This document shows, in pieces, positions 1,468 through 40,981 of a stretch of DNA of 40,981 nucleotides (its first letter is position 1; each line of letters starts with the position of its first letter). Origin of the DNA: Escherichia phage J8-65; the sequence record NC_025445.1, one strand, 5' to 3'. The translations under genes were made by a program, and so were the position numbers. The notes below the pieces were generated by a model. The model was not told the origin of the DNA. It saw only the letters and a list, made by a program, of their open reading frames with translations, and did not search any database.

Positions 1468-1857
1468 ATGTACCGTATCTATGCAAGCGCATATCGTCAG
1501 GGCAACGCTGAGTCAGTCAATCTGGCACTGCACTGCAAGGCACTGCGAACGGTGCAGGACATGTTCGGAGTGATTCCGGTCACACTGACAGGCAAGTTCG
1601 ACAATGCGTATGAGTTACGCATGGTCTTCCCTGTCGATGGAATCTACGAAATCCGGCAGGCTGTTAAGCTGTTTTGTAAAGCCTTCGAACAGGACTGCAT
1701 CATGGTAGTGACCAAAGACGACGATGCAATCTTCATGGACTCACCGTATCCGGGCAAGCCTGCTGGCAAGCTGGTCAGCAAGACTAACGAGGAAATGGAA
1801 GCCGGGCAGTTCACTGCTTGGACTTACGACGGTGAGCAATTTTGGGTAGTGGAGTAA
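1468..1857 (+). CDS. hypothetical early protein (129 aa)
   Basis: ATG start, GGAG upstream, first ORF after promoter cluster. Confidence 0.6.
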   Translation: MYRIYASAYRQGNAESVNLALHCKALRTVQDMFGVIPVTLTGKFDNAYELRMVFPVDGIYEIRQAVKLFCKAFEQDCIMVVTKDDDAIFMDSPYPGKPAGKLVSKTNEEMEAGQFTAWTYDGEQFWVVE

Positions 1858-4719: not shown

Positions 4720-5235
4720 ATGGCTATTAACTTCGCAACATTTGACAAACAGCAGTTCGAAGTAACCAAACGTCTGGCCGCAGAGATTGACGAGCGCCCG
4801 GAAGTATCCGACGTGATTGAATTTCGTGGTGGCTTCCTGCCAAAGATGACGTACGTGGCAGCAATTAAGGCAGGCCGACTGGACATGGTGGATATCATCC
4901 CGCCGACCCGCACTGGTGCCATCATCGCACGCAACATCACACTGCTGGCTGGTCTCGGCACCAAGTCTCTGGATGCAGCAGGTGAAACAGAGCGTGCTGT
5001 TCAGCTCCGCATGGCGGCAACGTTGGCAATCCGTTTCGCATGTGAAGAGACGGTACACGCCAGCTACCACGACTGGTATCAGGCATGTGAGAATGTGCCT
5101 GCCGACCTGAGCGAGACGCACGCAAGTGTGCTGTTCGCTGGCGAGGTACTGGATGCCATGCTGCAACAGTTGAAGGAAGGACTGGGTGAGCTGCTGGCGG
5201 CGGCGAGCGAGGTGAAACGTGCAACGCTCCACTGA
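4720..5235 (+). CDS. hypothetical protein (171 aa)
   Basis: ATG start, tight packing with flanking genes. Confidence 0.6.
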   Translation: MAINFATFDKQQFEVTKRLAAEIDERPEVSDVIEFRGGFLPKMTYVAAIKAGRLDMVDIIPPTRTGAIIARNITLLAGLGTKSLDAAGETERAVQLRMAATLAIRFACEETVHASYHDWYQACENVPADLSETHASVLFAGEVLDAMLQQLKEGLGELLAAASEVKRATLH

Positions 5236-5239
5236 TTTA

Positions 5240-5392
5240 GTGGTGCGTAAATCACCCACTGGTAAACACTGGTGGGTGGTGTACGCTGACCTACCGGGCA
5301 GACCGTTTGCTGTCCGTGACACAAAGTGGCAGGCCGAAGCTAAGCGTGATGACCTGCAACGTATCGTAAACAGAATGGGAGTACCAGCATGA
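5240..5392 (+). CDS. possible small protein (about 50 aa, GTG start)
   Basis: open frame fills the gap between flanking genes and ends in ATGA overlap with next start; no clear RBS. Confidence 0.25.
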   Translation: MVRKSPTGKHWWVVYADLPGRPFAVRDTKWQAEAKRDDLQRIVNRMGVPA

Positions 5393-5631
5393 CCATCATC
5401 AAAGACGAAAGCAAACTCGAAGTCGGTTCCGCATACAAGCTGAGCGGCGGTGTGTTCTGTTCGGTTGCACTGGACGTGAACGCAGGCAAGTTCATCTTCA
5501 AAGGGCGTGACGAATACAACCCGGACATGCTGCACTTCGAAGGTGTTACCGATGGCCGGGCGCAGTTCTTGTACCCGGAGCGGCTGGCCGATGGGCAGTA
5601 TGATTTGTCCAAGGTTGAAACAATCAAGTGA
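5389..5631 (+). CDS. hypothetical protein (80 aa)
   Basis: ATG start, GGGAG upstream. Confidence 0.55.
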   Translation: MTIIKDESKLEVGSAYKLSGGVFCSVALDVNAGKFIFKGRDEYNPDMLHFEGVTDGRAQFLYPERLADGQYDLSKVETIK

Positions 5632-5663
5632 CTTACTCGTGGCATTTCGTGAGAGATGCCACC

Positions 5664-5903
5664 ATGAAAGTAACTGTATTGCACAACATCGGAGGAGATA
5701 TGCTCAAAGTAATATTGTTGTTCCTGCTTCTGGTAATTATTTGGGGAGCGTTATGGGTGGGTCTTGCATCACTGGTGCTTATCCCTGCGGTCGGTGAGTC
5801 AGCCACTTCAACACTGGGCACACTGCTCGGCATGTTGGTGGGCTGGGGTCTGATGCAGTTGAGCCTGAGTGTAGGCCAGAATCGGGGGTGGATTAAATGG
5901 TGA
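5664..5903 (+). CDS. small membrane protein with two predicted TM helices (79 aa)
   Basis: ATG 5664; VILLFLLLVIIWGALWVGLASLVLIPAV and LGTLLGMLVGWGLMQLSLSV hydrophobic segments. Confidence 0.55.
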   Translation: MKVTVLHNIGGDMLKVILLFLLLVIIWGALWVGLASLVLIPAVGESATSTLGTLLGMLVGWGLMQLSLSVGQNRGWIKW

Positions 5904-6337
5904 AGCCTAAGTATAAAGTCGGGGATGAAATCGTAGGCGACGAAGGCACTGGCACCCGGTCGGGTAAGCTGAGTATCATCGCTTGGGTTAACCCTGACCG
6001 CCGAGCGTGGGAGCGTAGCGGGGAGACTCGTTACATCGTGAGCTGGATTGGTGAGCGCCTGAATGCGCAGCCGGATATCAGCCACTACAAATCTGACTGG
6101 CTGGAAGAGAACACCAGTCTGGTCAGCACGCCAGCCGAGAAGCGCGGTCGGTTCATGTGCTTGGTCGAAGGCAGCAACGCGCCGCCGAAGGTTGAGCACA
6201 TCACTGAGCGCGAGGCGCGTGAAGAAGCTGAACGTCTGGCAGAGCGGTGCGGAGGTACTGTCCGTGTGCTGCAAGTTGTGGCCAGCGTGAAGATGAAGAA
6301 GAAGATTCTGTACACACCGGACTGGGATAACGAATGA
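5897..6337 (+). CDS. hypothetical protein (146 aa)
   Basis: ATG start overlapping upstream stop. Confidence 0.55.
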   Translation: MVKPKYKVGDEIVGDEGTGTRSGKLSIIAWVNPDRRAWERSGETRYIVSWIGERLNAQPDISHYKSDWLEENTSLVSTPAEKRGRFMCLVEGSNAPPKVEHITEREAREEAERLAERCGGTVRVLQVVASVKMKKKILYTPDWDNE

Positions 6338-7047
6338 GAAAGTCAGTGAGCAATGATGAGTGGCCGGAGCTGGCGAGGCGTCTGCCGATAGGACAAAAGC
6401 GTCGGACGTTTCACGCTTGCTCACGCTCATTCAGTAAGACCAACTTCGAGTATGGCCGGAACAGCGAAGGCGTGTGGTGCAAGTGCCATCGCTGCGGCCA
6501 TGCTGATTTCAAACCCCTCAACCATGCACCGTATGTACCGCCAGCCAAAGAGCAGGTGAAGATACCGGGCGACGTTGTTCCGCTTATCGAAGTGATAGCG
6601 AAGCAGCCCGGACTGCTACTGCCAGCGTTGGAGAAGTATGAGCTGCTGCCACACCTGAGCGTGCTGACTGCCAGCCCAACGTACGGGCGTATCTACTTGC
6701 CGGACAACTCGGCAAGCTACTGTGGTCTGGACTACACCGGGCGGCAGTTCATTCCGTGGCGCTCGCCACACAACCATCTAATGGCAGTGACAGTAAGTAA
6801 TCACGACGACGATGAGTTCAAAGGGATATGGATTTACGACAGCGCATCAGCATATCTCGACCACGTTCGTCGTGGTGACAGAGTGGATGGCAATGCAGCG
6901 TTCGTAGCCAATGCCGACGATGCCACCGTACGCGCTCTGGTTAGCGTTGTGCTGGCCAATCGTTATGAAGTGATATCATTGCAGCACCGACAGAGCGACA
7001 GGCTCAGGCGTGAGCTGAGAGTGTGTGGCAGGGTGCGAACAATATAG
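6334..7047 (+). CDS. putative primase-like zinc-ribbon protein (237 aa)
   Basis: C-x16-C-x-C-x2-C cluster (CSRSF...WCKCHRCGH); sits directly upstream of helicase as in T7-like primase-helicase modules; no clear TOPRIM seen. Confidence 0.45.
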   Translation: MRKSVSNDEWPELARRLPIGQKRRTFHACSRSFSKTNFEYGRNSEGVWCKCHRCGHADFKPLNHAPYVPPAKEQVKIPGDVVPLIEVIAKQPGLLLPALEKYELLPHLSVLTASPTYGRIYLPDNSASYCGLDYTGRQFIPWRSPHNHLMAVTVSNHDDDEFKGIWIYDSASAYLDHVRRGDRVDGNAAFVANADDATVRALVSVVLANRYEVISLQHRQSDRLRRELRVCGRVRTI

Positions 7048-7056
7048 GAGGGTAAT

Positions 7057-8322
7057 GTGTTAGACAAACTGTTGCTCTCTGTCATGCGTGAGCGAGGGAA
7101 GTATAACTCCCTGCGCCATGCCATTCCAGAGGACACTATGAGTCAGACCACAGGCTACATGCTGCGTGCGTATGGCTCATACTTCGAGGCGTTCCCGGAT
7201 TCAGATTACGTGGATATGGAAACGCTAGGCACACACGTCCGGCTCAAGACTGGGAGTACACCGGAGCAGATGGCTGCGTTCGAATCGCTATGCCAGCAGC
7301 TCAAGGAATACCAGCCGACGAAGCAGCAGACCGAAGGCATCATCGACCAGTTAGTCGAGCTGGATACAGCAGGCAAGGTTAACCTCCTTGCGCAGAGGTA
7401 CGACAATGGCGATGAGATTGATTTCATCTATGAGCTGGGCCGCCTTGCAGAAGGCGCACGCCGCAGTCGAGGGCAGTCATCTGTCACTGATTACGTTGAC
7501 GATGATGTGGTTGATATTATCAATCGGACGGATGATGACCACGGTTTCAAGTTCGGTCTCATGTGTTTGCAGGACAGCGTTAGGGTACTTCTCCCCGGTG
7601 ACTCCGTTGCAATCGGCGCTCGACCCGACAGTGGCAAGACTTCCTTCATCGCGTTTAACCTTACGAGAATGGCGGCGACAGCAGCGAAGCTGTATCCGGG
7701 CCGACCAATCCTATGGTTCAACAACGAAGGGCAGGGCATCAACATCATCCCGCGCATCTACCAAGCGGCGCTCGGCTGTACGCTCCCGGAGTTAAAGGCA
7801 CTGGGTGCAGACAGGAAGAAGTTGCATGAGAAGTACGCGAAGGCGTTGAATGCTCCGGCCAACATCATACGTGTGAAGGACATGCACGGTGCAACGTTGG
7901 CCAAAGCGGAGCAGGTGATTGAAGCAATGAATCCCTGCATCGTGGTGTGGGATATGCTGGCAAACTTCAAGTTGTCTGTGGCTGACGCTAACAGCAACAA
8001 GGCCAGCCAAGTCGAGCAGCTCTGGCAGGAGGTACGTGAGCTGGCGGTACGTCATGACTTCGTATCGCTGGCTACGGTTCAGGTATCCGCAGACGGTGCC
8101 GACGATATGTTCCCCGCGCTAGACGCACTCAAGGATTCCAAGACTGGTATCCAAGGTGCGACCGATGTGATTGTCATGCTGGGTTCCGTTGACGACCCGG
8201 CGCTGGCAGCGAGGCGCGGCGTGAGCACTCCGAAGAACAAGCGGCAGATAGCTGGGCGTCCGTCCAACGTCCGTTCGCAGGTTCACTTCTATGCTGATAA
8301 ATGTCAATTCGAGGATATGTGA
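7057..8322 (+). CDS. DnaB-like replicative DNA helicase (421 aa)
   Basis: GTG start 5 nt after AGGAGG; Walker A GARPDSGKTS; position matches T7 gp4 helicase domain. Confidence 0.75.
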   Translation: MLDKLLLSVMRERGKYNSLRHAIPEDTMSQTTGYMLRAYGSYFEAFPDSDYVDMETLGTHVRLKTGSTPEQMAAFESLCQQLKEYQPTKQQTEGIIDQLVELDTAGKVNLLAQRYDNGDEIDFIYELGRLAEGARRSRGQSSVTDYVDDDVVDIINRTDDDHGFKFGLMCLQDSVRVLLPGDSVAIGARPDSGKTSFIAFNLTRMAATAAKLYPGRPILWFNNEGQGINIIPRIYQAALGCTLPELKALGADRKKLHEKYAKALNAPANIIRVKDMHGATLAKAEQVIEAMNPCIVVWDMLANFKLSVADANSNKASQVEQLWQEVRELAVRHDFVSLATVQVSADGADDMFPALDALKDSKTGIQGATDVIVMLGSVDDPALAARRGVSTPKNKRQIAGRPSNVRSQVHFYADKCQFEDM

Positions 8323-8675
8323 TGAGCAAGATAAAGGTAGGCGACCGCGTTCGTAACTGTGACACCAAGAGCGTACACTTCGGCGCGACTGGTACTGTGG
8401 TGGATATCGACAGCAAGTGCATCAGCATCCGGCGCGACGATGGCTCGCGTGGTTCCGGTATCTATGGTTCGTGGACTGCGCGGCCAGAGTGCTGGGAGCT
8501 ACTGGATGAAGTAGCCAAGGTGCCGGAGCCGACGAGCACTGACGAAGACTGGAGCTATGCAGAAGCTGAGCGTCTGTATCAGGCGGCGTGTGATGCCATG
8601 TCGCGGTACAATCAGTACATCGAGCGTAAGCCTACGACTAACTACCTGTCCGGCTCAGTGCCGAGCAAGTGGTGA
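8322..8675 (+). CDS. hypothetical protein (118 aa)
   Basis: ATG 8322 with GAGGA RBS, 1-nt overlap with helicase stop. Confidence 0.55.
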   Translation: MSKIKVGDRVRNCDTKSVHFGATGTVVDIDSKCISIRRDDGSRGSGIYGSWTARPECWELLDEVAKVPEPTSTDEDWSYAEAERLYQAACDAMSRYNQYIERKPTTNYLSGSVPSKW

Positions 8676-8839
8676 AAGGGCGCAGCTATCGTCGTTGCTC
8701 TTGCGGCGGCAGCCTGCTAACTGAGCAGGTCAAGGGCAAGGCCACTGGCAAAGTGCTGGTGATTTATGAGTGTGAAAAGTGTGGAGCGAAACAGTATGGA
8801 AGAACGCACGTATCGAGCGGCACCCTTAAACCAACGTGA
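8672..8839 (+). CDS. putative zinc-ribbon protein (55 aa, GTG start)
   Basis: GTGA overlap with upstream stop; CSC-x20-CEKC motif; overlaps next ORF in another frame. Confidence 0.3.
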   Translation: MKGRSYRRCSCGGSLLTEQVKGKATGKVLVIYECEKCGAKQYGRTHVSSGTLKPT

Positions 8840-8987
8840 GCAGGAACTCATCCGGGCACAGTACCGGAAGGGCGACGCATTCCGTGGTGCCGAGGCATTG
8901 GGTGAACGCTTCAACGTAGCACCCGAAGATATCTACGCCGTGGTTAACTTCACCTATACCAAGGGGAGAAAGAAAAGTGATAAGTGA
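8796..8987 (+). CDS. small HTH-like protein (63 aa)
   Basis: ATG 8796; LNQREQELIRAQYRKGDAFRGAEALGERFNVAPEDIYAVV resembles a sigma region 4 / LuxR-type HTH. Confidence 0.4.
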   Translation: MEERTYRAAPLNQREQELIRAQYRKGDAFRGAEALGERFNVAPEDIYAVVNFTYTKGRKKSDK

Positions 8988-9660
8988 TAACGACTTCAAG
9001 CGCGTGTGGGCAGAGGAAATCTGTCGGCTGTTGCAGGGCGAAGAGTTGAGCTTCGTTGTTGCAGGGGGTGGGGCACGAGACACTGCGCTTGGCGTAGACC
9101 CGAAGGACTTTGATATCGTGGTGTTCGGTTGGGGCGGTGACATGCAGCGCGTTGCTCGCCGACTGGACTGGCTGGATTCCCGGCTGGAAGACTGGGCTGC
9201 GGAGCATGAGCTAGACTACGAGTACATGCCGAGTTACCACGATGCAGAAGAGGGCGGCGACTTTGGCTCCCGACTGTACGGCGTGTACAAAGTTGGCCCG
9301 GTCGATATCATCATCAGCAAGTGCGGCTGCTGGTCACAGGTGCTGAACGAGTTCGACTTCAACCTGAACCAGTTCTACTTCCCGTCCAGTATCCCGCGCT
9401 ACTCCGGCCAGTACAGCCGTGACCCCGGCGACTTCATGGCGTACCCGTATGAGCCGAAGCTGACTGCCGAGGATGTGCAGTGGTATCCGGCGCTGGCCAG
9501 TCTGGTTGAAAGCTATGACGACCTTCTGACCCTGCGTGTGTGCCGACCGGATGCGAGCATGAGTCGTCTGGCTTACATGTTAGAGAAGCACGAGAAGCTG
9601 CTGCCCCGCATTCAGGAGTACGTGAATCGTATGCCTGACCATTTGGGTGGCACAGCATAG
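8977..9660 (+). CDS. class II CCA-adding-enzyme-like nucleotidyltransferase, short form (227 aa)
   Basis: GTG start after GGGGAG; VVAGGGARDTALGVDPKDFDIVVFG matches the GGxxRD...DxD head-domain signature of CCA-adding/poly(A) polymerase family; downstream DFNLN motif. Confidence 0.6.
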   Translation: MISDNDFKRVWAEEICRLLQGEELSFVVAGGGARDTALGVDPKDFDIVVFGWGGDMQRVARRLDWLDSRLEDWAAEHELDYEYMPSYHDAEEGGDFGSRLYGVYKVGPVDIIISKCGCWSQVLNEFDFNLNQFYFPSSIPRYSGQYSRDPGDFMAYPYEPKLTAEDVQWYPALASLVESYDDLLTLRVCRPDASMSRLAYMLEKHEKLLPRIQEYVNRMPDHLGGTA

Positions 9661-9670
9661 CGGAGGGGTA

Positions 9671-12136
9671 ATGGCAATTCGAGCACAGGTCATTGACGTT
9701 GAGACCGAGAACCATGACTGGTACGGTGAGCTGGCATCTCCACGCTGCCCGGACAACTACGTCGTGATGCAAGGCCAGCGCGATTGTGTGCTGACGAAGA
9801 ATGGCTGGGAGTTCTACGAGCGCGAAGAGTATCGGTACACGTCAAGGGAAGACTGGTTGCAGAACAAGAGTCTGCACCTGCACCCCGACACGAACATACT
9901 GGTGGCACACAACGCGCCGTACGAATTGAGCTGGTGGTTCCTGCATTACGGTGACGAGTTCACTGCCTTCCTCAAACGGGGTGGCCGTGTATTCTGTACC
10001 GCATATGCAGAGTACCTGCTGACTCACCAGCAATCGCAGTACCCATCGTTAAACGAAACCGCGCCGAAGTACGGCGGTACTCACAAGGTGGATGCAGTCA
10101 AGGCAATGTGGGAGTCAGGTTATCTGACCAGCCAGATTGACCCGGAGCTGCTAAGTGAGTACCTGTCCGGGCCGAGCGGCGATATCGAGAACACCACGAA
10201 GGTGTTCGTCGGGCAGTGGGCTGAGCTTACCAAACAAGGTATGCTACCGATGGCACTGACCCGTATGGAAGGGATGCTGATGTGGGCGTACATGATGCAC
10301 AGCGGCTTGCACGTTGACCGTGAAGTGGCTGAGCGGAATCGTCAGGAGTTACGCACGCAGATTGACGAGCTGACACAGAAGCTGCTGGATTATCTACCAG
10401 CGGATATGCCGGAGGAAGCACGTAACCAGTTCAAGTTCACGTCGGCATACCACATGTCAGCGTTCGTCTTCGGCGGCGTCATGAAGTATACGACCCGCGT
10501 ACCACGTACTGATGCAGACGGCAATCCAATCTACGTGAAGGTGGATGCGCCGCTGTTCAAGCGTGGCAAGGAGAAGTGGTTGAAGCACAAGGAAGAGTGC
10601 GAGTTCGATGAAGAGTCCGGGCTATGGTATGACCCGGTTGAGAAGGTACACCAAACTCTGTACACGGCAGGCAAGTTCAAGGGCGAGCCTAAGTTCGAGA
10701 AGCTGGCGACAGATGAGGTGGACACCAAGTGGGGCGATGTGCTGTACCCGCTGCCCGGTCTGCTCCGCGACAAGGACAGACGAGCGAAGGAGATAGCAGA
10801 CAACCTCGTATGGGAAGACCCGAAGCGTCCGGGTGAATATCTCCGGCGCACTGGTGACTGGGTGGGCAAGCGTAAGCTGGCTGATGGTACACCTGTGTTC
10901 AGTACGGCGGGTGAGGTGCTGGAGATTCTGGCTGCCCGTAAGATTCCCGGTGTGGTTGAAATCGCTGAACGTGCCAAGTCACAGAAAGACCTCGGCACCT
11001 ACTACTTGAGTGAGACCTTCGACGAAGAGGGTAACGTCACTGGCCAGTCAGGTATGATGCAGTTCATCCAGCCGGATGGGATTGTACATCACACCATTAA
11101 CATGACTGCGACGGAGACCACTCGCTTATCATCGGCACGACCGAATAGCCAGAACCTTCCGCGTAAAGGTACGAGTAAAGTTAAGCAGATGTTCACCTCC
11201 CGGTTTGGGCCGGGCGGCAGGATAGTCGAGGCTGACTACTCGGCGCTGGAAGTAGTAGGGCTGGCGGGATTCAGTAAGGATAAGAATCTCGTTAAGGCTC
11301 TGATGGATAACATCGACATGCACTGTATGCGTCTGGCCGCGCAGCTTGAGGAAGACTACGAAGAGGTGAAGCGTAAGGCGAAGGATGAATCCCATCCTGA
11401 CCACGAACGCTACAGCCAGATGCGTACCGATATCAAGCCGAAGGCATTCTCATATCAGTACGGTGCGACAGCGCGAGGCATCGCGTACTCCACTGGCTGT
11501 ACTGAGGAAGAGGCACAGGCATTCATCGACAACGAGAAGAGTCTGTTTCCAGAAGTGGAAGCATGGTTCGACAAGGTTATCTTCCCGGCAGTGGAGAAGT
11601 CCGGTCAGAGCAATGTGTTCAAGGAGCAGGATGAGAATGGACGGTGGTGCGTCTACCGCCGTGGCTACTTCAAATCTCCGGGCGGCACCTGCTATTCATT
11701 CCGTCAGTATGAGAAATGGAACAGCGCAGCTCGTGGGTATTTGATGGAATACAAGCCAACCCAAATGCGTAACTATCCGATTCAAGGTGAGACCGCGTTT
11801 TGGGTGCAGGGCATTGGTGGTCTGTTGTTCCGCTGGCTGCTGAGCAATGACTTCTTTGGTGGGCGTGTGGTTCCCATCAACCAAGTGCATGACGCATTCT
11901 ATTTCGACGTTGCGCCTGACTGTCCACACGAGTTCTTCGTAGGACTCAAGGCAATCATGGAGAGCATCCCGGAATACTATAACCACGTATGGCCTGAGTA
12001 TGACCTGACGGTGCCGTTCCCGGCAGAGGTGGAAGCAGGCCCAAGCATGTACGAGAAGCACCACGTAGAGACGACAGCCGAAGAAGTGCTGGAGTTCAAA
12101 CGTAACTTTCTGAAATCTAAGGGTATCGAGATATGA
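9671..12136 (+). CDS. family A DNA polymerase, T7 gp5-like (821 aa)
   Basis: ATG 9671 after GGAGGGG; exo motif VIDVETE; motif A DYSALEVVG; motif B RTDIKPKAFSYQYGAT; motif C VHDAF. Confidence 0.9.
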   Translation: MAIRAQVIDVETENHDWYGELASPRCPDNYVVMQGQRDCVLTKNGWEFYEREEYRYTSREDWLQNKSLHLHPDTNILVAHNAPYELSWWFLHYGDEFTAFLKRGGRVFCTAYAEYLLTHQQSQYPSLNETAPKYGGTHKVDAVKAMWESGYLTSQIDPELLSEYLSGPSGDIENTTKVFVGQWAELTKQGMLPMALTRMEGMLMWAYMMHSGLHVDREVAERNRQELRTQIDELTQKLLDYLPADMPEEARNQFKFTSAYHMSAFVFGGVMKYTTRVPRTDADGNPIYVKVDAPLFKRGKEKWLKHKEECEFDEESGLWYDPVEKVHQTLYTAGKFKGEPKFEKLATDEVDTKWGDVLYPLPGLLRDKDRRAKEIADNLVWEDPKRPGEYLRRTGDWVGKRKLADGTPVFSTAGEVLEILAARKIPGVVEIAERAKSQKDLGTYYLSETFDEEGNVTGQSGMMQFIQPDGIVHHTINMTATETTRLSSARPNSQNLPRKGTSKVKQMFTSRFGPGGRIVEADYSALEVVGLAGFSKDKNLVKALMDNIDMHCMRLAAQLEEDYEEVKRKAKDESHPDHERYSQMRTDIKPKAFSYQYGATARGIAYSTGCTEEEAQAFIDNEKSLFPEVEAWFDKVIFPAVEKSGQSNVFKEQDENGRWCVYRRGYFKSPGGTCYSFRQYEKWNSAARGYLMEYKPTQMRNYPIQGETAFWVQGIGGLLFRWLLSNDFFGGRVVPINQVHDAFYFDVAPDCPHEFFVGLKAIMESIPEYYNHVWPEYDLTVPFPAEVEAGPSMYEKHHVETTAEEVLEFKRNFLKSKGIEI

Positions 12137-13038
12137 CTAAGCCGAGTGTATTGAATCGCTTTAACACCATCGTTGAACAGTTCGTTGAAGAAGAAGGCGT
12201 AGACTTTAACGAAGCCGTGTCCGGTGGCGGCGGCAAGCTGATGCCGGAAGGTAAGGCACTGGCTCGCCTGATTCAGTATGTGGAAATCGGGCCGCAGCCT
12301 ATTAAGCAGGACGCAAGCAAACCGCCTGTCAATAAGTTCTTCCTCAAGTTCGCAGTGTGGGGTAAGGGTAAGGACAAGACCTCAACCTACCACGATGTGG
12401 TGGATGGCAAGATGGTGCCGGGCATTGTGCGCACGCAGTTCATTGCTGTTAAGAAAGACCTCAACAGCAAGTCCGGCGCGTACAAACTGTTCAAGCGTAT
12501 GAACCCGGAGAAGACTGCGAAGCACTTCGCTCAGCTCCTGAACAATACGTTCATCCTGCCTATCGTGCATAACGAATCAGGCGAGGGCGAGAACAAGAAG
12601 GTGTACGCCAACATCGACCTTGAGAACATCAGCCTCGCGGTTAACCCGGTGACTGATGAGCCGTTCGATGTGCCGGAGGTTGAGGACGAGTCGCTGTTCA
12701 AGCTGTTCCTGTGGAACCGTCCGACTAAGGAAGACTGGGAATCCCTGTACATTGAAGGGAAGAACGACGAGGGCAAATCCAAGAACTGGATTCAGGATGC
12801 TCTGCTGTCCAGCCCTGAGTATCCCGGCTCTCCGCTTGACCTGCTGCTGAATGGCGGCGGCGCTGGCTCTGCAATCTCTGAGCTGCCTGAGCTGGAAGAG
12901 GCGCAGGAGGAAGCGAAGGAAGTAACGCCGGAGCCGGAGGAACTGCCTACCAAGAAGGGTGGTAAGAAGGGTGCGACCGAGACCTCGCCGGAACCTGACG
13001 TGACTGGTGATGCTGACTTTGGCCTGCCGAGCCTGTAA
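12133..13038 (+). CDS. hypothetical protein with acidic C-terminal tail (301 aa)
   Basis: ATGA overlap with polymerase stop; acidic PE-rich C-terminus ending GDADFGLPSL; possible ssDNA-binding role is speculative. Confidence 0.55.
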   Translation: MTKPSVLNRFNTIVEQFVEEEGVDFNEAVSGGGGKLMPEGKALARLIQYVEIGPQPIKQDASKPPVNKFFLKFAVWGKGKDKTSTYHDVVDGKMVPGIVRTQFIAVKKDLNSKSGAYKLFKRMNPEKTAKHFAQLLNNTFILPIVHNESGEGENKKVYANIDLENISLAVNPVTDEPFDVPEVEDESLFKLFLWNRPTKEDWESLYIEGKNDEGKSKNWIQDALLSSPEYPGSPLDLLLNGGGAGSAISELPELEEAQEEAKEVTPEPEELPTKKGGKKGATETSPEPDVTGDADFGLPSL

Positions 13039-13073: not shown

Positions 13074-13271
13074 ATGAGAGAGCTTGATGAAAGAGAGGTC
13101 ATCTACTACGACGACCCCAAGAGCATGAGCATGGTAATCAAGAGCCGCCGTGAAACAGTGTCCATGAGTTACGACATGTTCTTTACGCTCAGGCAAATGT
13201 TTCAGAACGAAGTGTTAAGGAGAGTCGATGAGCAGATTGCAGCGCTTGTTGGCGACAGCCGGAGCGATTGA
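13074..13271 (+). CDS. hypothetical protein (65 aa)
   Basis: GGAGG RBS, ATG start. Confidence 0.5.
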   Translation: MRELDEREVIYYDDPKSMSMVIKSRRETVSMSYDMFFTLRQMFQNEVLRRVDEQIAALVGDSRSD

Positions 13272-14205
13272 TGTAGACCAATTCGACGGGTACGTTGCGG
13301 GGCGCGTACTTCTTTGCGATGCAGACTCAACAGTGTATGTGGCCGCAGCCACAACGAAGAACATCGAGACAGCCAAGACGCGCTTCTGCTCCGGCGTCCT
13401 GACTGCCAAGTTCCTTGCTAATGCTCAGTCGGTTCGTATCGAGCTGACTGCTGCTGAGTGCAAGAAGGCTGGGCGGTACAAGCTGCGCGGTGTCAAGCTG
13501 TACCAGAGCAACCGTGATAAAGACCGGAAGCCGGGATTGGTCGAGCCGCTGCGCAAAGCTATTGGCCGCAACATGTTCAATATCCCGGACGGTGAGGATT
13601 GGTACGTTCACCTGAACTTCGACGTTGAGGCAGACGACACCTTAATCATGGACGCTTGGACGCTGGGGCTGGAGCACGCTGTAATCTACAGCGCTGACAA
13701 AGACCTGCGTTGTTGGCCGGGGCGCTTCCTCGACCCGTACGACAACAAGGTGCTGGAGCCGTGCAAGGGTATCGGCACGCTGTGGTGGCACGAGACGAAG
13801 AGTGACAAGTCTCTCATCGGTCATGGCCCAATCTTCTTTTGGGCACAGATGCTGATGGGTGACACTGCCGACGCCATAGCTGGCCTCGTTAAGTGTGGCA
13901 AACAAAGGGCGTGGGATTTACTGGAGAGCTATCAGGAAACCGAGGACGAGTCAGCCGTAGCCGAGCTGGTACTGCGGGAGTACATGGCCAAAGACCAGAA
14001 CCCGTGGCCAGAAGCCGTAGCCCTGTGGCTGCTGCGCACGCCGGAGTACACCTTCGCCGCTCACCTGAACACGCTGACTCTGAGCAAGGAGCTGCGTGTG
14101 TGGCTCCACAAGAAATTGATGGAGAAGTGGTATGAGGAAAGTGACTGGCGCGACACTGCTGCACCTACGGAAGAGTGCGATGGGTTGTCCTTGCCCACTC
14201 TGTAA
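13228..14205 (+). CDS. 5'-3' exonuclease, T7 gp6 / FEN-like (325 aa)
   Basis: AAGGAG RBS; N-terminal acidic LLCDADS, SADKDLRCWPG and GDTADAIAGL motifs parallel T7 gp6. Confidence 0.75.
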   Translation: MSRLQRLLATAGAIDVDQFDGYVAGRVLLCDADSTVYVAAATTKNIETAKTRFCSGVLTAKFLANAQSVRIELTAAECKKAGRYKLRGVKLYQSNRDKDRKPGLVEPLRKAIGRNMFNIPDGEDWYVHLNFDVEADDTLIMDAWTLGLEHAVIYSADKDLRCWPGRFLDPYDNKVLEPCKGIGTLWWHETKSDKSLIGHGPIFFWAQMLMGDTADAIAGLVKCGKQRAWDLLESYQETEDESAVAELVLREYMAKDQNPWPEAVALWLLRTPEYTFAAHLNTLTLSKELRVWLHKKLMEKWYEESDWRDTAAPTEECDGLSLPTL

Positions 14206-14512
14206 TGAACCAATGGTTGACCTCAAGCTCATGGTTGTTGACCACGACCATGTGACTGGGGAGATACGCGGCGTCATCTGCCGCTGGTGCAATGCGCAGC
14301 TCGGCAAGGTAGAGAACTCTGCCAACCGAGCCAAGCGCCAGCGCACGGTGGACGACTGGTTGGACAGCGCCATTGAGTGGCGGCGTAAGCAGCACACCGG
14401 GTTGATGTATCCGACGCATAAGACGGAGGCTGAGAAGAAGGAAGCCGCAGCCGCGAAACGTAAGAAGGCCGCAGCAGCGAGAGCGCGTGCCGTAATCACT
14501 AAGGGGAAATGA
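14132..14512 (+). CDS. endonuclease VII-type Holliday junction resolvase (126 aa)
   Basis: CPCPLC...DHDHVTGEIRGVICRWCN signature of T4 endo VII family; alternative start at ATG 14180. Confidence 0.8.
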   Translation: MRKVTGATLLHLRKSAMGCPCPLCNEPMVDLKLMVVDHDHVTGEIRGVICRWCNAQLGKVENSANRAKRQRTVDDWLDSAIEWRRKQHTGLMYPTHKTEAEKKEAAAAKRKKAAAARARAVITKGK

Positions 14513-15633
14513 TGAAGCTGTCGAACCAGCAGTTGAAAGAAGATATTGCCGAAGGTCTCGGCACCAAGGCAATCGCCGACAAGCACGACATGACCGAGAG
14601 CGCTATTCGTTATCGCAAGCGTCAGCTCGCCAAGAGTGGCTGGAGTCCTGAGCATGACATGACGAAGGAAGTGCCGGAACCCTACATGATTAAGGGTACG
14701 TCCACGCTGTATGACAAAGAGGGCAACGTAGTCCAGCAATGGGTGAAGACTGCGCTCGACCATGAACGTGAGCTGGCGCTGTTGCAGGTGGCAGTCGATG
14801 CCATCTGTGAGGATATCAAGCCTGAGCTACCACGACCGTACCGACGCGGCCCAGCCCCGGCTGAGTTGCTCGACCTGTTCGTATTGACTGACTACCACTT
14901 AGGTATGCTGTCATGGGCCGAAGAGACTGGCGCGGGTTGGGATATGCGGATTGCAGAAGACCTGCTGGTCAAGTGGTTCGCTGCCGCCATTGAGTCAGCG
15001 CCGCCAGCGCAGGTGGCTGTGCTCGGCCAGCTCGGTGACTTCCTGCACTGGGATGGACTGGATGCAGTGACCCCATCAAGCGGCCACGTACTGGACGCCG
15101 ATACCCGGTTCCAGAAGCTGACTCGTGTGGCCATTCGTTCGCTGCGCCGCATCATTGCCATGCTGCTGGACAAGTTCCCGCAGGTGCATGTCATCTGTGC
15201 GGAGGGCAACCACGATATGGCCAGCTCCATCTGGCTGCGCGAGTTGCTTACCGCGCTGTACGAGGATGAGCCGCGAGTCACCGTAGACCGCAACCCTGAC
15301 CCGTACTACTGCTATGAGTTCGGCGAGACTGCGCTGTTCTTCCACCACGGTCACAAGCGTAAAGCTGAGCAGCTTGAGACTGTACTGGTTGCCAAGTACC
15401 GCGAAGTGTATGGCAGAACGAAACATGCTTACGCTCACGTCGGCCACCTCCACCACAAGAAAGTGCTGGAGTCTCCGATTATGGTTGTTGAGCAGCACCG
15501 CACGCTGGCGGCTAAGGATGCGTATGCGTCTCGCGGCGGGTGGTTAAGTGAGCGGAGTGCCAGCGTGATTACCTACCACGCCCGGTTCGGTGAGGTGGCT
15601 CGCTTCACCATTAGTCCTGAGATGTTGGAATGA
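14509..15633 (+). CDS. calcineurin-like metallophosphoesterase with N-terminal HTH (374 aa)
   Basis: N-terminal HTH-like segment; GNHD and GHxH/HVGHLHH metal-binding motifs. Confidence 0.6.
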   Translation: MMKLSNQQLKEDIAEGLGTKAIADKHDMTESAIRYRKRQLAKSGWSPEHDMTKEVPEPYMIKGTSTLYDKEGNVVQQWVKTALDHERELALLQVAVDAICEDIKPELPRPYRRGPAPAELLDLFVLTDYHLGMLSWAEETGAGWDMRIAEDLLVKWFAAAIESAPPAQVAVLGQLGDFLHWDGLDAVTPSSGHVLDADTRFQKLTRVAIRSLRRIIAMLLDKFPQVHVICAEGNHDMASSIWLRELLTALYEDEPRVTVDRNPDPYYCYEFGETALFFHHGHKRKAEQLETVLVAKYREVYGRTKHAYAHVGHLHHKKVLESPIMVVEQHRTLAAKDAYASRGGWLSERSASVITYHARFGEVARFTISPEMLE

Positions 15634-15857
15634 TATACGACGATGACGTAATCCAACTCACTGCCAATGGCTGGGCTGTCGAATGGACAGCCCGGACACA
15701 GGTAGAGGTAGTTGAAGACACTGTAGTCATACGTCAGGGCGACGACGAAGTTACCCTGCCGTGGTGCTACATCCCTGACATGCTGAAAGCACTGGAGAAA
15801 GCGCAAGATGAACTTAAAAGATACCGTTGTGGTAGACCTCGACGGAACGTTGGCTGA
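15630..15857 (+). CDS. hypothetical protein (75 aa)
   Basis: ATGA overlap with upstream stop. Confidence 0.5.
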   Translation: MIYDDDVIQLTANGWAVEWTARTQVEVVEDTVVIRQGDDEVTLPWCYIPDMLKALEKAQDELKRYRCGRPRRNVG

Positions 15858-16335
15858 TGGCCGCTGGCGTCTGCACCTGCTGCCGCCGCCTGACCGCCGC
15901 CATCTCGACGAAGCGTGGGCCGAGTTCAACTTGGCAGGTGCAGATGACCCCGCGTTTCAGGATACGATTGACATTGTGAACGCTCTGGCCCTCACGTATC
16001 GCATTGTCATTCTGACCGGACGCGGGGCCGTGGCCCGTGAAGTAACCGAGCAATGGCTCGACGATAATGGGATGGTGTACGACAAGCTCATCATGCGTGA
16101 GATTGGCGACTGCCGTAAGGACACTGAGATGAAGCGTGCTGCGCTGGAGGATATTGGTATCGACAATATCGTCTGCGCCTTTGACGACCTGCCGCACATC
16201 GTGGACTTCATGCGCAGCCTCGGCATCACGGTTTATGAAGTGACTCGGTACGAGGACAATCACGAGTATGTTCACGCAAATGCTAAGTATGATGGCGCTA
16301 ACGATACGGTCATTGGAGGTAAGGCGAATGGGTAA
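15808..16335 (+). CDS. HAD-superfamily phosphatase (175 aa)
   Basis: N-terminal VVVDLDGTL (HAD motif I DxDGT). Confidence 0.65.
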   Translation: MNLKDTVVVDLDGTLADGRWRLHLLPPPDRRHLDEAWAEFNLAGADDPAFQDTIDIVNALALTYRIVILTGRGAVAREVTEQWLDDNGMVYDKLIMREIGDCRKDTEMKRAALEDIGIDNIVCAFDDLPHIVDFMRSLGITVYEVTRYEDNHEYVHANAKYDGANDTVIGGKANG

Positions 16336-16924
16336 GAAAGGTCAGAAGTTCTGTCTGGATATCAACCGCGAGTATCACGACAAGCTGCTCAATGAGCTGC
16401 GAGATAACGGTGCCATCCTGACATATGACGAGCCGTATGATGTACCCAACGACAGCAGGGATTATTACACCTGCGTCTACAACGGTAAGAAGATACTGCT
16501 GATACTGGAACCTTACGAGGTACAGGAAGTCGAGACGGCGTTCATCCCGGTTGACCCGTACGACCCTGCGCATGATGTTGAGGTGGCCGTGGCCAATAGC
16601 TCCGGGCCGGGCGGTATGAAGTATGATGGTGGCAAGCCACGCATGGCTCTGCTGTTCGATGGGTGCCCGAACGCACTGGCCGCTGTCGGCGAGGTGCTGA
16701 CGTTTGGCGCTCAGAAGTACGCTGCCCACTCGTGGCAGACTGTGCCGGAAGGTCAGGAGCGCTACAAGTCTGCGCTCATACGCCACCTACTGGCCGTGGG
16801 TAATGGTGAGGAACTGGATAGTGAATCTGGTCTGCACCATCTGGCCCATGCAGCGTGCAATGCGCTGTTCATTCTGGAACTGGAACTGAGGAAACGTAAT
16901 GAGTCGTTATCAAAAAGTGCTTGA
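16328..16924 (+). CDS. hypothetical protein, possible MazG-like all-alpha NTP pyrophosphohydrolase domain (198 aa)
   Basis: GGAGG RBS; C-terminal VGEVL...EELDSESGLHHLAHAACNALFILELE resembles MazG EExxE/D pattern; weak. Confidence 0.5.
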   Translation: MGKKGQKFCLDINREYHDKLLNELRDNGAILTYDEPYDVPNDSRDYYTCVYNGKKILLILEPYEVQEVETAFIPVDPYDPAHDVEVAVANSSGPGGMKYDGGKPRMALLFDGCPNALAAVGEVLTFGAQKYAAHSWQTVPEGQERYKSALIRHLLAVGNGEELDSESGLHHLAHAACNALFILELELRKRNESLSKSA

Positions 16925-17165
16925 TGATACAGTGGTTGATGGTAAAGTGTGCGGTGCCTGTCACGGCAGCGGCACCTTCCACAGTATGCTGATGAACAAA
17001 GAGATTGTGCTGTGCGAGTGTGAAGCCTGCGGCGGTACGGGTACGAGTGACCCGGTATTACAGCGGCAGGTGCTGTGTGAGTTGGGGCTGCGCAGTCAGG
17101 TACAGCCGGGCTACTCTGAACCTACGTTCATTGATGTGCCGAATAACAAAGACGATTACGAGTAA
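16899..17165 (+). CDS. small zinc-finger protein with CxxCxGxG repeats (88 aa)
   Basis: CGACHGSG and CEACGGTG DnaJ-like zinc-binding repeats. Confidence 0.55.
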   Translation: MSRYQKVLDDTVVDGKVCGACHGSGTFHSMLMNKEIVLCECEACGGTGTSDPVLQRQVLCELGLRSQVQPGYSEPTFIDVPNNKDDYE

Positions 17166-17174
17166 GGGGATGTG

Positions 17175-19604
17175 ATGGATTTGCTGGCAGAACAGATTCG
17201 ACTGGAAGAAGAGGCGCGTGCCCGTCACCGGGCAGGCTGGTTAGATAACGTACGAGATGCGATAGACTCAGGCCGCGCCTCGGCGGTGCCACTGTTGCAG
17301 CGAGCGATGGTTGAGGCATACCCCACTGTCGAAGCTGCAATGCTGGATATCCTGAACGAAACTACTCGTGGGTTCGGTGCGCAGTACCGCACGTATCTTC
17401 GTGAAGTTGGGGCCAAGACCTGTGCGTCTCTGGCCCTGAGCATGGCGGTGTCCGGCGCGACCGGGCGTACCGCCGTGACTCAACTGCTCCGCGAGATGGG
17501 GCAGGCAATGATGGCTGAGGTAGTCTATGCGAGAGCTGAGAAGGCTGGCAAGCGCGAGGCTGCGTACATGGAGAAGGTTCGCCGTGACGTGAACAAGTCC
17601 AAGTCCAAGTCGCCGAACCACATCTACAACAAGGCACGCGCTGCCTCAGCCAACGTTGGTGTCGAAACTGAAATCCTGCCACAGCGTGCGCTCATCACAA
17701 TCGGCAAGTTGATGATGCGTGCTGTCGAACCGACTGGTCTGGTCAAGACTGTCCGAGTCGGCGGTAGCTTGAAGAACCGGGCGACGGCGCACTTCGCTCT
17801 GCATGACGATGTGCTCATCATGCTTGAGGATTGGATGAAGCTGCCACACCTCGGCATCAACTGTTACCCACCGCTGATTGTGCCGCCAGCTCAAATCAAT
17901 GCGAATGGCTTCGGCGGTATGTGGCACTCTCCGGGGCAGGCAGCGACGTATGTGGCAATCAGCAAGCTCAAGCACCCGGCGTACCGTAAGTTAGGTATTG
18001 ACCCACTGCCAGTGATTGAGCCGTGCATGATGCTGTCGAGCGTTCCGTTCCGCGTGAACAAGATGGTGCTGGAGTTCCTGCAAGCCAACCGAACCGGGGT
18101 GATGGGGTTGCCTGTTGCGCCAGTAGAACCGAAGCTGCCGTTCACTATCCCGGAGGGCGTAACGTTCAGCCAGTACATCAGCAAGTTCCCGGCTGAGATG
18201 CAGCAGCGTATGGATGCTGAGGCACACGAGTTCAAGGTCAAGACTCGCATCTACCACAATGACATGAAGAAGTTCACCACGCAGATTCAGGCACTGAGCA
18301 GTGCGCTGCGCGAGGCTGAGCAGTACAAAGTGTACGAGCGAATCTACCTGCCGACGTACGCCGACACCCGTGGCCGTTGCTACTATGCCTCAGCCCTGAA
18401 CCCGCAAGGCATTGACGCAATTCGTGCTTTGCTTGAACTGGCCGACCCGGTGCCGTTGGGTAAGGAGGGTCTGTTCTGGTTGAAGGTTCATGTGGCCAAC
18501 TGCTTCGGCTATGACGCTACAGACTTTGAAGACAGGGCAGCGTGGACTGATAAGACAATGCCGCGACTGCGCGAGGCTTGCCGTCTGCCGGAGGCATACG
18601 ACTCGTTCTGGTCTGAGGCTGACAGCCCACTGTGTGCATGGGCGGCTGCGGTAGAGCTGGTGCGTGCGCTGGATAGCGGGAACCCGGAAGAGTATCCGTG
18701 CCGCGTGGTGACGCAATGGGATGCAACATGCTCAGGTCTGCAACATCTCTCCGCAATGCTGCGCGACGAGGTGGGTGGTGCTGCGGTCAACCTGATTGAT
18801 TCCGTAGGACGTAAGGCAGACATCTACGTTAAGACCGCTACAGCGGCTCTGGAGGCGTTAAAGGAAGCAGAGGCAACCAACCCTACGGTCTTGGGTTCGT
18901 GGCTCGTACAGACGGGCATAGAGCGCGGCATGGCCAAGAAGCCTGTGATGACTTATGTGTACGGTGCGACACGCCACGGCATGGTGGATTACTATGCTCT
19001 GTATTTGCGAGAGCACAACACTCCGCTGCCGGAAGGGTACACCCTGTTCCAGTGTGCAATGTACATCGCCGGGTTCATGTGGGATGCAATTCCTCGCGTG
19101 GTGCCGAAGGCTGCTGAGCTGATGGCGTGGCTGCAAGCTATCGCATCGGAGGCAGCGGCTAACGGGGAGTACGTGGAGTTCACTGCTCCGTCTGGTCTGC
19201 GCATGGTGAACATGTATCAGGCTCACAAAGAAACCACTATGGGTATCAAGCTGATGGGTGTTCATGCCATCAAGCTGCGCGAGTACATCGACAAGCCAGA
19301 CGGTCGCAAATGTGCGGCTGCGATTGCTCCGAATTTTGTACACGCGATGGATGCCAGCCACATGATGAAAGTTCTGTGGGAGATGTGGAATAACGGGATT
19401 TACATGGTGTCTATCCATGATTCATTCGGTGTTGCAGCGGCTCATGCAGGTCTACTGCACAAAGTCATCCGTGAAAAGTTCGTGCAGATGTACGAGGAAC
19501 ATGACCCGATTCAACAACTTGCTGTGAGATATTCTAAGGAAGCTCCGGCGCGGGGTCAGTTGGATATCAACGAGGTCAAGAAATCCTCCAAATTCTTCTG
19601 CTAA
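17175..19604 (+). CDS. single-subunit DNA-directed RNA polymerase, T7-like (809 aa)
   Basis: ATG 17175 after AAGGGGA; WDATCSGLQHLSAM, KKPVMTYVYGAT and SIHDSFG match T7 RNAP motifs A, B, C. Confidence 0.92.
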   Translation: MDLLAEQIRLEEEARARHRAGWLDNVRDAIDSGRASAVPLLQRAMVEAYPTVEAAMLDILNETTRGFGAQYRTYLREVGAKTCASLALSMAVSGATGRTAVTQLLREMGQAMMAEVVYARAEKAGKREAAYMEKVRRDVNKSKSKSPNHIYNKARAASANVGVETEILPQRALITIGKLMMRAVEPTGLVKTVRVGGSLKNRATAHFALHDDVLIMLEDWMKLPHLGINCYPPLIVPPAQINANGFGGMWHSPGQAATYVAISKLKHPAYRKLGIDPLPVIEPCMMLSSVPFRVNKMVLEFLQANRTGVMGLPVAPVEPKLPFTIPEGVTFSQYISKFPAEMQQRMDAEAHEFKVKTRIYHNDMKKFTTQIQALSSALREAEQYKVYERIYLPTYADTRGRCYYASALNPQGIDAIRALLELADPVPLGKEGLFWLKVHVANCFGYDATDFEDRAAWTDKTMPRLREACRLPEAYDSFWSEADSPLCAWAAAVELVRALDSGNPEEYPCRVVTQWDATCSGLQHLSAMLRDEVGGAAVNLIDSVGRKADIYVKTATAALEALKEAEATNPTVLGSWLVQTGIERGMAKKPVMTYVYGATRHGMVDYYALYLREHNTPLPEGYTLFQCAMYIAGFMWDAIPRVVPKAAELMAWLQAIASEAAANGEYVEFTAPSGLRMVNMYQAHKETTMGIKLMGVHAIKLREYIDKPDGRKCAAAIAPNFVHAMDASHMMKVLWEMWNNGIYMVSIHDSFGVAAAHAGLLHKVIREKFVQMYEEHDPIQQLAVRYSKEAPARGQLDINEVKKSSKFFC

Positions 19605-40722: not shown

Positions 40723-40981
40723 TCGACCCGAAGGAGCGCCTGCGCCCCCGTACGCCTGTGCGCGTGCGCGTGCATGACGTGTGCGCATTATGCGTGCGTG
40801 CCTGCGCGTGCGGTATTGCTCGCGTGCGTGCGGTATAGTTCGCGCGTGCCCGTTTCCATTGTCGCGGTGTGGTGCTGTGTGGTGCTGCGTCCTGCTGCTG
40901 CGTGCTGCGCCACTGCTACCACTGGACGCGCCTGCGCTGGGCTGCTGGTGCTGGGCGGTGCTGCTGTGTGTATCGGTGGCT
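40723..40981. repeat. right direct terminal repeat (DTR)
   Basis: identical to 1-259; window ends at last repeat base so the true DTR could be longer. Confidence 0.85.

Follow-up and report, generated by a model that had tools for sequence, protein, structure and literature searches.

Introduction

The closest described counterpart of the genes considered here belongs to phage T5. The pre-early genes of T5 are ordered A2 (DNA-binding), a small open reading frame (ORF), A1 (a predicted metallophosphatase), two small ORFs and dmp. A1 has been found both necessary and sufficient to digest the host chromosome, and Dmp to convert the deoxynucleoside monophosphates (dNMPs) freed from host DNA into nucleosides, which are excreted (bioRxiv 10.64898/2026.04.02.716235). 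The subject of the present report is a block of genes at positions 14509–16924 of Escherichia phage J8-65 (NC_025445.1), whose entire stretch of 40,981 nucleotides is termed the window. The block encodes a metallophosphoesterase (MPE) fused to a helix-turn-helix (HTH) domain, a HAD phosphatase and a DUF5664 protein. It is proposed here, with moderate confidence and from predicted functions throughout, that this block is a variant of the T5 A1–Dmp theme in which DNA breakdown is combined with deoxynucleotide hydrolysis. The proposal is made because DNA or deoxynucleotide chemistry is common to every gene context. It is highly probable that the substrates of the block are DNA or deoxynucleotides rather than RNA.

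The genes themselves are present and annotated, in part wrongly, in sequenced relatives, and none of the families is new. The novelty lies in viewing the block as one instance of a combinatorial module, made up of an MPE, a HAD phosphatase and a deoxynucleotide enzyme, that appears analogous to T5 A1–Dmp.

Two other systems bear on the comparison. In mycobacteriophage A10ZJ24, the early-expressed MPE Gp48 has phosphodiesterase and DNase activity and destroys host DNA (PMC12287305). It is described as an MPE with five conserved motifs, with no HTH mentioned, and its likeness to the MPE of the window is one of description. In bacteria, the PUA-Calcineurin-CE-HAD defence is a host immune effector in which sensing of m6-dAMP leads to collapse of the deoxynucleoside triphosphate (dNTP) pool; its calcineurin-CE and HAD components degrade free dNTPs stepwise, and in related systems MazG alternates with the calcineurin domain (bioRxiv 10.64898/2026.01.15.699771). 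As described, this system likewise pairs a calcineurin-fold enzyme with a HAD phosphatase, but the phage block lacks a PUA sensor.

Comparison with the T5 Pre-early Region

The arrangement in the window resembles that of T5 in that a HAD phosphatase gene follows an MPE gene on the same strand at a distance of a few hundred bases, the two being separated by small ORFs. Moreover, the two phosphatases fall in the same family, PHROG 415, at about 1e-55 (E 2.5e-54 for the window HAD, and 3.6e-57 for T5 Dmp over its whole length). In each case the MPE has a DNA-binding partner: a fused HTH in the window and the separate A2 protein in T5. A1 homologs outside the Demerecviridae often carry N-terminal HTH domains, the third form of this partnership. 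No similarity was found between the window HTH and T5 A2.

The two regions also differ. The window MPE belongs to PHROG 704 and has no match to PHROG 1745, the family of A1. In addition, the window block lies in the middle, replication operon rather than in a first-step-transfer region, and a predicted dNTPase, the DUF5664 protein, is added to it.

A further arrangement was found at positions 5001–8713 of a 43,970-nucleotide Logan contig (SRR12762283), where a homolog of T5 A1 with 42% identity lies in a T7-like replication operon. The order on this podovirus-like contig is primase, helicase, small ORF, A1-like MPE, DUF5664, HAD, DNA ligase and DNA polymerase. Its HAD protein belongs to a different family, most similar among solved structures to mitochondrial 5'(3')-deoxyribonucleotidases (E 0.003, over nearly the full length). 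This means that a third MPE family and a second, deoxyribonucleotidase-type HAD family fill the same slots. The contig also runs counter to the published impression that A1 is hardly found outside the Demerecviridae.

The HTH-fused Metallophosphoesterase

A preliminary description of this DNA had proposed three consecutive genes, and all three proved real, correctly located on the plus strand and strongly supported by family matches. The first (14509–15633, plus strand) encodes a protein of 374 amino acids that falls in PHROG 704 and is annotated as “DNA repair exonuclease” or “phosphoesterase”. Its proposed identity as an HTH joined to a calcineurin-fold MPE is confirmed: the GNHD and GHxH motifs are there, and all five metal-binding motifs (DxH, GD, GNH[DE], H and GHxH) are present and invariant in 29 homologs. 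The residues concerned are D128/H130, G176-D177, G233-N-H-D236, H280/H282 and G312-H-L-H315. The N-terminal HTH domain spans residues 1–45 (14509–14643, plus strand), with modelled helices at residues 6–14, 19–25 and 30–42, and homologs of the protein match HTH_23, HTH_28, HTH_1, HTH_8 and GerE. The catalytic core occupies residues ~120–374 (14866–15630, plus strand), and its beta-sandwich MPE fold places the protein in the calcineurin-like superfamily.

The structural neighbours of the protein are generic phosphodiesterases and the Mre11/SbcD nucleases, and Mre11 and SbcD are among the best matches. Sequence identity to Mre11/SbcD and to the MJ0936 phosphodiesterase is low (8–16%). The window MPE shares the Mre11-like GNHD motif but not the capping domain, since none is present in the model and the core runs to the end of the protein at residue 374; nor does it share the Rad50/SbcC partner, as no SbcC/Rad50-like gene is found in the window or annotated in relatives. 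Conversely, its HTH and a family-specific EQHRTLA...SRGGW motif are absent from the Mre11/SbcD and MJ0936 families. The window MPE is a member of a distinct, phage-specific HTH-tethered family.

In the lambda-phosphatase clade, which includes the phosphatase of Clostridium thermocellum Pnkp (CthPnkp), motif II typically reads GDxxDRG. In the window protein it reads GDFLHWDG, which does not fit this signature, and the CthPnkp phosphatase is absent from the structural matches. The two enzymes are alike in their binuclear MPE chemistry, but the J8-65 genome lacks the kinase and ligase partners of CthPnkp.

Members of the HTH-MPE family were counted in 2052 of 50,697 phage records, or ~4% of the phage genomes sequenced, and in T1-like phages the gene is near-core. 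The literature was searched for a function ascribed to PHROG 704 or to the genes of Bonnellvirus, the genus of J8-65, and none was found. A TerS-like role was considered because the gene precedes the terminase genes in two contigs, and was rejected because elsewhere it lies in replication, lysis or tail regions. The early “HTH” gene 008 of Kagunavirus, reported in a transcriptome paper, is a possible MPE homolog.

The HAD Phosphatase

The HAD gene (15808–16335, plus strand) encodes a stand-alone phosphatase of the Pnkp/Dmp clade, 175 amino acids in length. The DLDGT motif seen in the preliminary description lies at residues 10–14, and the protein proves to be of the Pnkp type, scoring 56.9 bits on PF25109 (HAD_PNKP; gathering cut-off 27.6). 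The superfamily motifs are present as D10-L-D12-G-T14, T70, K104/K109 and D126-D127, along with T70-G-R72 and D105. Its best solved relatives are the phosphatase domains of Capnocytophaga Pnkp1 (4xrp, E 1.4e-7) and T4 Pnkp. When the protein is aligned to 1ltq, D10/D12, R72, D105 and D126/D127 fall on T4 D165/D167, R213, D254 and D277/D278. These positions, essential in the T4 Pnkp phosphatase, are conserved in the window HAD. Score and aligned residues therefore both place it among Pnkp-type phosphatase domains.

It is not a bifunctional Pnkp, however. The protein consists of the HAD domain only, and no P-loop kinase was found in the window. Like T4 Pnkp and Pnkp1, it matches PF25109 above threshold with aligned catalytic residues; unlike them, it stands alone, with no kinase or ligase gene in the genome and with deoxynucleotide enzymes as neighbours. 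The database label “polynucleotide kinase” is wrong for this protein because it has no kinase domain. PHROG 415 as a whole bears this label, yet it holds kinase-less HAD phosphatases, including T5 Dmp, and the label spreads into GenBank records. The family occurs in 1256 of the 50,697 phage records.

These relatives had led the preliminary description to suggest a Pnkp-type toolkit for RNA repair or counter-defence, in which the MPE, the HAD or both would heal the 2',3'-cyclic-phosphate or 3'-phosphate RNA ends left by tRNA-cleaving defence nucleases, possibly together with a nucleotidyltransferase at 8977. Some of the evidence fits this suggestion. The closest solved relatives of the HAD are the phosphatase domains of two RNA-repair enzymes, calcineurin-type phosphatases such as CthPnkp are able to heal RNA ends, and the genome encodes a Pol-beta-type nucleotidyltransferase with a weakly PcnB-like head. 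Against it stand the MPE motif II described above and the lack of any 5'-kinase or RNA or DNA ligase in the window: no sizeable unassigned early ORF has a kinase or ligase family match, tblastn with one phage ligase and one kinase as queries was empty, and relatives annotate none. In addition, the neighbours in all lineages are DNA or deoxynucleotide enzymes, and the host ligase RtcB would be unable to repair ends from which the 3'-phosphate had been removed. The nucleotidyltransferase itself is only weakly PcnB/CCA-like, lies 5 kb away and adjoins the DNA polymerase gene, and its inclusion in the block is not supported.

The 75-residue ORF

The three genes are tightly packed but not strictly consecutive, as the preliminary description had called them: a conserved ORF of 75 amino acids between the MPE and HAD genes (15630–15857, plus strand) had been missed. 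It is annotated in Escherichia phage smaasur and kept in all Bonnellviruses examined, with 46–48% amino acid identity compared to 81–92% for the flanking genes. No match was found in family scans. Its rapid divergence may point to a protein that regulates or inhibits the nuclease or acts as its partner. It separates MPE and HAD as the small ORFs of T5 separate A1 and dmp.

The DUF5664 Protein

The last gene of the block (16328–16924, plus strand) encodes a two-domain DUF5664 protein of 198 amino acids from its likely start. The preliminary description had begun it at 16268, where the longest ORF starts; the start is most likely at 16328 instead, because the ATG there follows a GGAGGT Shine-Dalgarno sequence and the same start is annotated in smaasur. 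The same description had called the protein MazG-like. As regards an all-alpha hydrolase of nucleoside triphosphates (NTPs), this agrees with the C-terminal domain (16613–16921, plus strand), a predicted dNTP pyrophosphohydrolase with four helices in the predicted model. The protein scores 113.2 bits on PF18909 (dGTP_diPhyd_N, formerly DUF5664; cut-off 27, E 5.8e-33) and matches PHROG 801, “dATP/dGTP pyrophosphohydrolase”, at 4e-47. What had been overlooked is a second, N-terminal domain of ~90 residues (16328–16597, plus strand), modelled as an SH3/KOW-like beta-barrel, for which all matches are weak and none reaches E 0.001. Among DUF5664 homologs this domain is swapped, variable or missing.

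A stand-alone DUF5664 enzyme from Arthrobacter phage Wayne is a dNTP pyrophosphohydrolase that converts dATP, dUTP and dGTP to dNMPs, as assayed with Mn2+ (PMC12884076). This enzyme and the DUF5664-DUF550 MazZ of Acinetobacter phage SH-Ab 15497 share PF18909 with the window protein, which has no DUF550 domain and carries an extra SH3/KOW-like N-terminal domain. In tblastn, the window protein shows ~39% identity to an Arthrobacter phage homolog over part of the DUF5664 domain. Homology of the DUF5664 domain to MazG was sought by hhalign against S-2L MazZ, by a profile search of PDB sequences and by Foldseek against PDB, all with negative results; Foldseek matched the N-terminal SH3-like domain only. 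The family occurs in 773 of the 50,697 phage records. Matches of Mre11/SbcD type for the MPE, and action on free nucleotides by a relative of the MazG-like protein, are largely what the preliminary description had expected to find if its RNA-repair suggestion were wrong. Its alternative suggestion, nucleotide sanitising or remodelling of the dNTP pool, is favoured by the evidence.

A Z-genome pathway was also considered and rejected, since tblastn with S-2L PurZ, DatZ and MazZ finds nothing significant in the window. In the Drexlerviridae, the gene that immediately follows the homologous MPE gene encodes a stand-alone SH3 protein (DUF7244), which has been assigned to the lysis module (PMC13164509). 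This protein might belong with the MPE and nucleotide genes instead; a sequence link to the SH3 domain of the window protein was not found. Two further families that match the DUF5664 domain, PHROG 5033 and 2252, are labelled “endolysin; inhibits RNA polymerase”, and this label has spread to GenBank, as in the “endolysin” of Vibrio phage K172.

Gene Neighbourhoods in Other Phages

Gene surroundings in other phages proved the most informative evidence. Those of the HAD gene were surveyed in 80 viral loci anchored on HAD homologs of 33–100% identity, which form 18 clusters at 70% identity. An MPE gene lies at most 400 nucleotides upstream of the HAD gene in 50 of the 80 loci (10 of 18 clusters). 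At most 400 nucleotides downstream, 60 loci (again 10 clusters) carry a gene for either a dNMP kinase (PHROG 139) or a DUF5664 protein. The kinase is adenylate/cytidylate-kinase-like and not a polynucleotide kinase. Upstream, the MPE belongs to PHROG 704, the HTH-MPE family, or to PHROG 221, and all four combinations with the two downstream enzymes were found. No sequence similarity was detected between the PHROG 704 and PHROG 221 MPEs.

The pattern spans Autographiviridae, Drexlerviridae and Guernseyvirinae, and the lineages include Bonnellvirus, LIMEzero, Melnykvirinae, LIMElight and its relatives, Ralstonia phage Reminis, Webervirus and Kagunavirus K1H. In Reminis the order is HTH-MPE, HAD and DUF5664, followed by a DNA ligase. 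In Webervirus, the HTH-MPE, HAD and P-loop kinase genes are adjacent, and in Kagunavirus K1H the same three form a self-contained cassette on the opposite strand among tail genes. LIMElight has HAD and DUF5664 with no adjoining MPE, and a Vibrio siphovirus has HTH-MPE and DUF5664 1 kb apart in the head module. In several phage families, MPE, HAD and deoxynucleotide enzyme are found together as a mix-and-match module. The three families nevertheless differ in host spectrum, and these differing spectra, together with the different numbers of records given above, mean that the three genes are not an obligatory set.

A related observation has been made in the Drexlerviridae, where a “DNA repair exonuclease” was reported as persistent (508 of 522 genomes), with a “polynucleotide kinase” and a dNMP kinase as its most frequent downstream neighbours; the authors of that study view these genes as extending the replication module and enhancing nucleotide supply (PMC13164509). 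In two further lineages, S-2L MazZ-like (MazG-type) genes lie 1.5–3.5 kb downstream of the HAD homolog (L080, 8490–8705; L086, 6953–7078). These may be another non-orthologous NTP pyrophosphatase of the same neighbourhood.

Genome and Operon Setting

The window is a complete linear phage genome with exact direct terminal repeats of 259 bp at 1–259 and 40723–40981, and the IMG/VR contig UViG_2706795724_000001 is identical to it. It is a Bonnellvirus genome (Autographiviridae), and between 14000 and 17200 it shares 94.1% identity with smaasur, of the same genus. All genes are on the plus strand in a phiKMV-like order: early genes, primase, helicase, nucleotidyltransferase, DNA polymerase and a gene of no assigned function, followed by 5'-3' exonuclease, endonuclease VII, the block, a zinc-finger protein, RNA polymerase and structural genes.

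The 5'-3' exonuclease (13228–14205, plus strand) lies directly 5' of the block, and endonuclease VII (14132–14512, plus strand) immediately precedes the MPE in the same operon; the family matches of the two are PHROG 107, PF02945 and PHROG 423. Start and stop codons overlap as ATGA at 14509 (endonuclease VII/MPE) and at 15630 (MPE/75-residue ORF), and overlaps further along measure 8 and 26 nucleotides. Promoter-like or terminator-like signals were looked for on the plus strand between 14200 and 17200, and none were seen. The overlapping start and stop codons and the absence of internal signals indicate that the block is one translationally coupled unit of the replication operon. This operon is the class II operon.

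Proposed Function of the Block

In the proposed scheme, the HTH-tethered binuclear MPE would bind DNA and cleave phosphodiester bonds, and may thereby degrade host DNA or process DNA ends alongside the neighbouring 5'-3' exonuclease and endonuclease VII. The DUF5664 domain would convert selected dNTPs to dNMPs and pyrophosphate; this activity is known from the Wayne relative, with dATP, dUTP and dGTP as substrates, and a similar specificity is presumed here. The HAD phosphatase, whose catalytic residues are present, would strip the monoester phosphate from 5'- or 3'-dNMPs or from 3'-phosphorylated DNA ends. Jointly, the three enzymes could control the supply of deoxynucleotides in the infected cell; dUTP or host-derived nucleotides, for instance, might be removed.

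Several observations weigh against this scheme. The HTH-MPE is not demonstrably a homolog of A1 by sequence comparison: in an hhalign comparison of the two families (29 versus 21 sequences), the probability is 63% and the aligned region is limited to 24 columns at the GNHD (NHD-A-S-WL) motif. Direct similarity between the window HAD and T5 Dmp is also weak, with none in pairwise comparison and a profile score of 19.8 bits over the N-terminal 55 residues, about a third of the protein. The HAD scores closer to polynucleotide 3'-phosphatase domains (Pnkp1, 34.7 bits; T4 Pnkp, 18–22 bits) and thus appears to resemble these enzymes at least as much as Dmp. This means that homology alone cannot settle whether its substrate is a 5'-dNMP or a 3'-phosphate. 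In most lineages the HAD is paired with a dNMP kinase, which points to salvage more than to disposal, and a dNMP kinase working beside a 5'-dNMPase would create a futile cycle. The 80 surveyed loci are nearest relatives only and redundant, and part, perhaps much, of the synteny may reflect shared ancestry. Finally, the HTH-MPE gene often stands alone. In Shemara and Sciku it forms an opposite-strand cassette among structural genes, in the T1-like Henu8 it lies beside the lysis cassette, and in lambdoid or P22-like contigs it is found between lysis and terminase genes.

A broader possibility, more tentative than the reading of the block itself and on balance doubtful, is that the J8-65 block is one case of a widespread combinatorial module that generalizes the “unique” scorched-earth strategy of T5 beyond the Demerecviridae. 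Such a module may draw on any of three unrelated MPE families (the HTH-MPE of PHROG 704, PHROG 221 or the T5-A1-like family), on a HAD phosphatase of the Pnkp/Dmp or the 5'(3')-deoxyribonucleotidase-like type, and on a DUF5664 or MazG dNTPase or a dNMP kinase. It may serve to demolish host DNA and to decide the fate of released or pre-existing deoxynucleotides. A possible purpose is the erasure of nucleotides, m6-dAMP among them, that act as danger signals and set off bacterial immunity.

If the trio does work like T5 A1–Dmp, rapid demolition of host DNA with deoxynucleotide catabolism would be a common phage strategy and not a peculiarity of T5. This would bear on how phages shut off the expression of host defences, on how nucleotide-sensing immune systems are triggered or evaded, and on the annotation of therapeutic coliphages and Klebsiella phages.

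Alternative Explanations

The block may instead heal DNA ends for replication, recombination or repair, an explanation considered unlikely. The HAD would then be a DNA 3'-phosphatase like yeast Tpp1 or the phosphatase of T4 Pnkp, converting 3'-phosphate to 3'-OH, and the HTH-MPE would be an end-processing nuclease of the Mre11/SbcD kind. Their action would support the DNA polymerase, the exonuclease, endonuclease VII and, in relatives, DNA ligase. Membership of the HAD in HAD_PNKP, with residues aligned to the essential positions of the T4 phosphatase, agrees with such a role, as do the high rank of Mre11 and SbcD among the structural matches of the MPE and the position of the block next to the exonuclease and endonuclease VII genes. 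An ATP-dependent DNA ligase gene also follows the block in Reminis-like phages and in several viral loci. However, end-healing leaves the conserved downstream dNMP kinase or DUF5664 dNTPase unexplained, as well as the replacement of the HAD by a deoxyribonucleotidase-like one. The MPE has neither a Rad50/SbcC partner nor a capping domain, and the window genome has no ligase. Moreover, 3'-OH ends are what MPE nucleases, FEN-type exonucleases and endonuclease VII produce, so that 3'-phosphate DNA ends would have no obvious origin in this phage.

It is rather improbable that the three genes have no joint function and are independently mobile accessory hydrolases that share one permissive slot of the replication operon, each with a role of its own; DUF5664, for instance, would sanitize dUTP. 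Their very different distributions (2052, 1256 and 773 records) and host spectra speak for independence, and so do the solitary HTH-MPE genes of Shemara, Sciku, Henu8 and the lambdoid contigs and the LIMElight arrangement, in which no MPE adjoins HAD and DUF5664. Independence accounts poorly for the recurrence of the same gene order in three phage families, for non-orthologous replacement at both flanking positions and for the movement of the trio as a single opposite-strand cassette in K1H.

A role in anti-defence, through destruction of nucleotide immune signals, is given a low probability. The MPE would in this case be a phosphodiesterase of cyclic (oligo)nucleotides, or the trio as a whole would erase danger signals or alarmones, and the cassette would be under the control of its own HTH, as with anti-CRISPR-associated regulators. 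The HTH-MPE gene is often moron-like, being self-contained with its own ribosome-binding site and terminator beside an Imm-like gene, and in some contigs lysis genes flank it on one side and terminase genes on the other. For jumbo phages, a counter-nucleotide role of calcineurin-like phosphodiesterases has been proposed (PMC7824862), and m6-dAMP from degraded host DNA triggers a bacterial defence. On the other hand, a PADLOC scan of the block proteins and the nucleotidyltransferase returned no matches, and no anti-defence family match was found. The MPE is near-core in Drexlerviridae, which is unusual for anti-defence genes, and in J8-65 it is embedded in the replication operon.

RNA repair, set out above with the HAD phosphatase, is very improbable and is further weakened by the action of the DUF5664 relative on free dNTPs and by the dNMP kinase that occupies the third slot elsewhere.

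Other Features of the Genome

The nucleotidyltransferase gene (8977–9660, plus strand) lies just before the DNA polymerase gene. Its product is of the Pol-beta type, falls in PHROG 1614 and is common to gh-1-like Pseudomonas T7-like phages. Its likeness to PcnB, poly(A) polymerase and CCA enzymes is weak and limited to ~40 residues of the head domain. An NCBIfam scan gave nothing useful.

The gene after the DNA polymerase (12133–13038, plus strand) encodes a protein of 301 amino acids in PHROG 862, whose match to the NGO0469 phage replication-initiation family is weak and below threshold. In a Melnykvirinae phage, the gene at the syntenic position carries the annotation single-stranded DNA-binding protein. 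Among the early genes, the product of 1468–1857 (plus strand) belongs to the S-adenosylmethionine lyase family (PF23780, E 4.9e-26), which has a T3-type anti-restriction function.

Immediately after the block, a DnaJ-type zinc-finger protein of 88 amino acids (16899–17165, plus strand) carries two CxxCxGxG motifs and falls in PHROG 6060, labelled “anti-termination protein Q-like”. Its gene adjoins that of the single-subunit phage RNA polymerase (17172–19604, plus strand) on the upstream side and is conserved in Bonnellviruses and LIMEzero.

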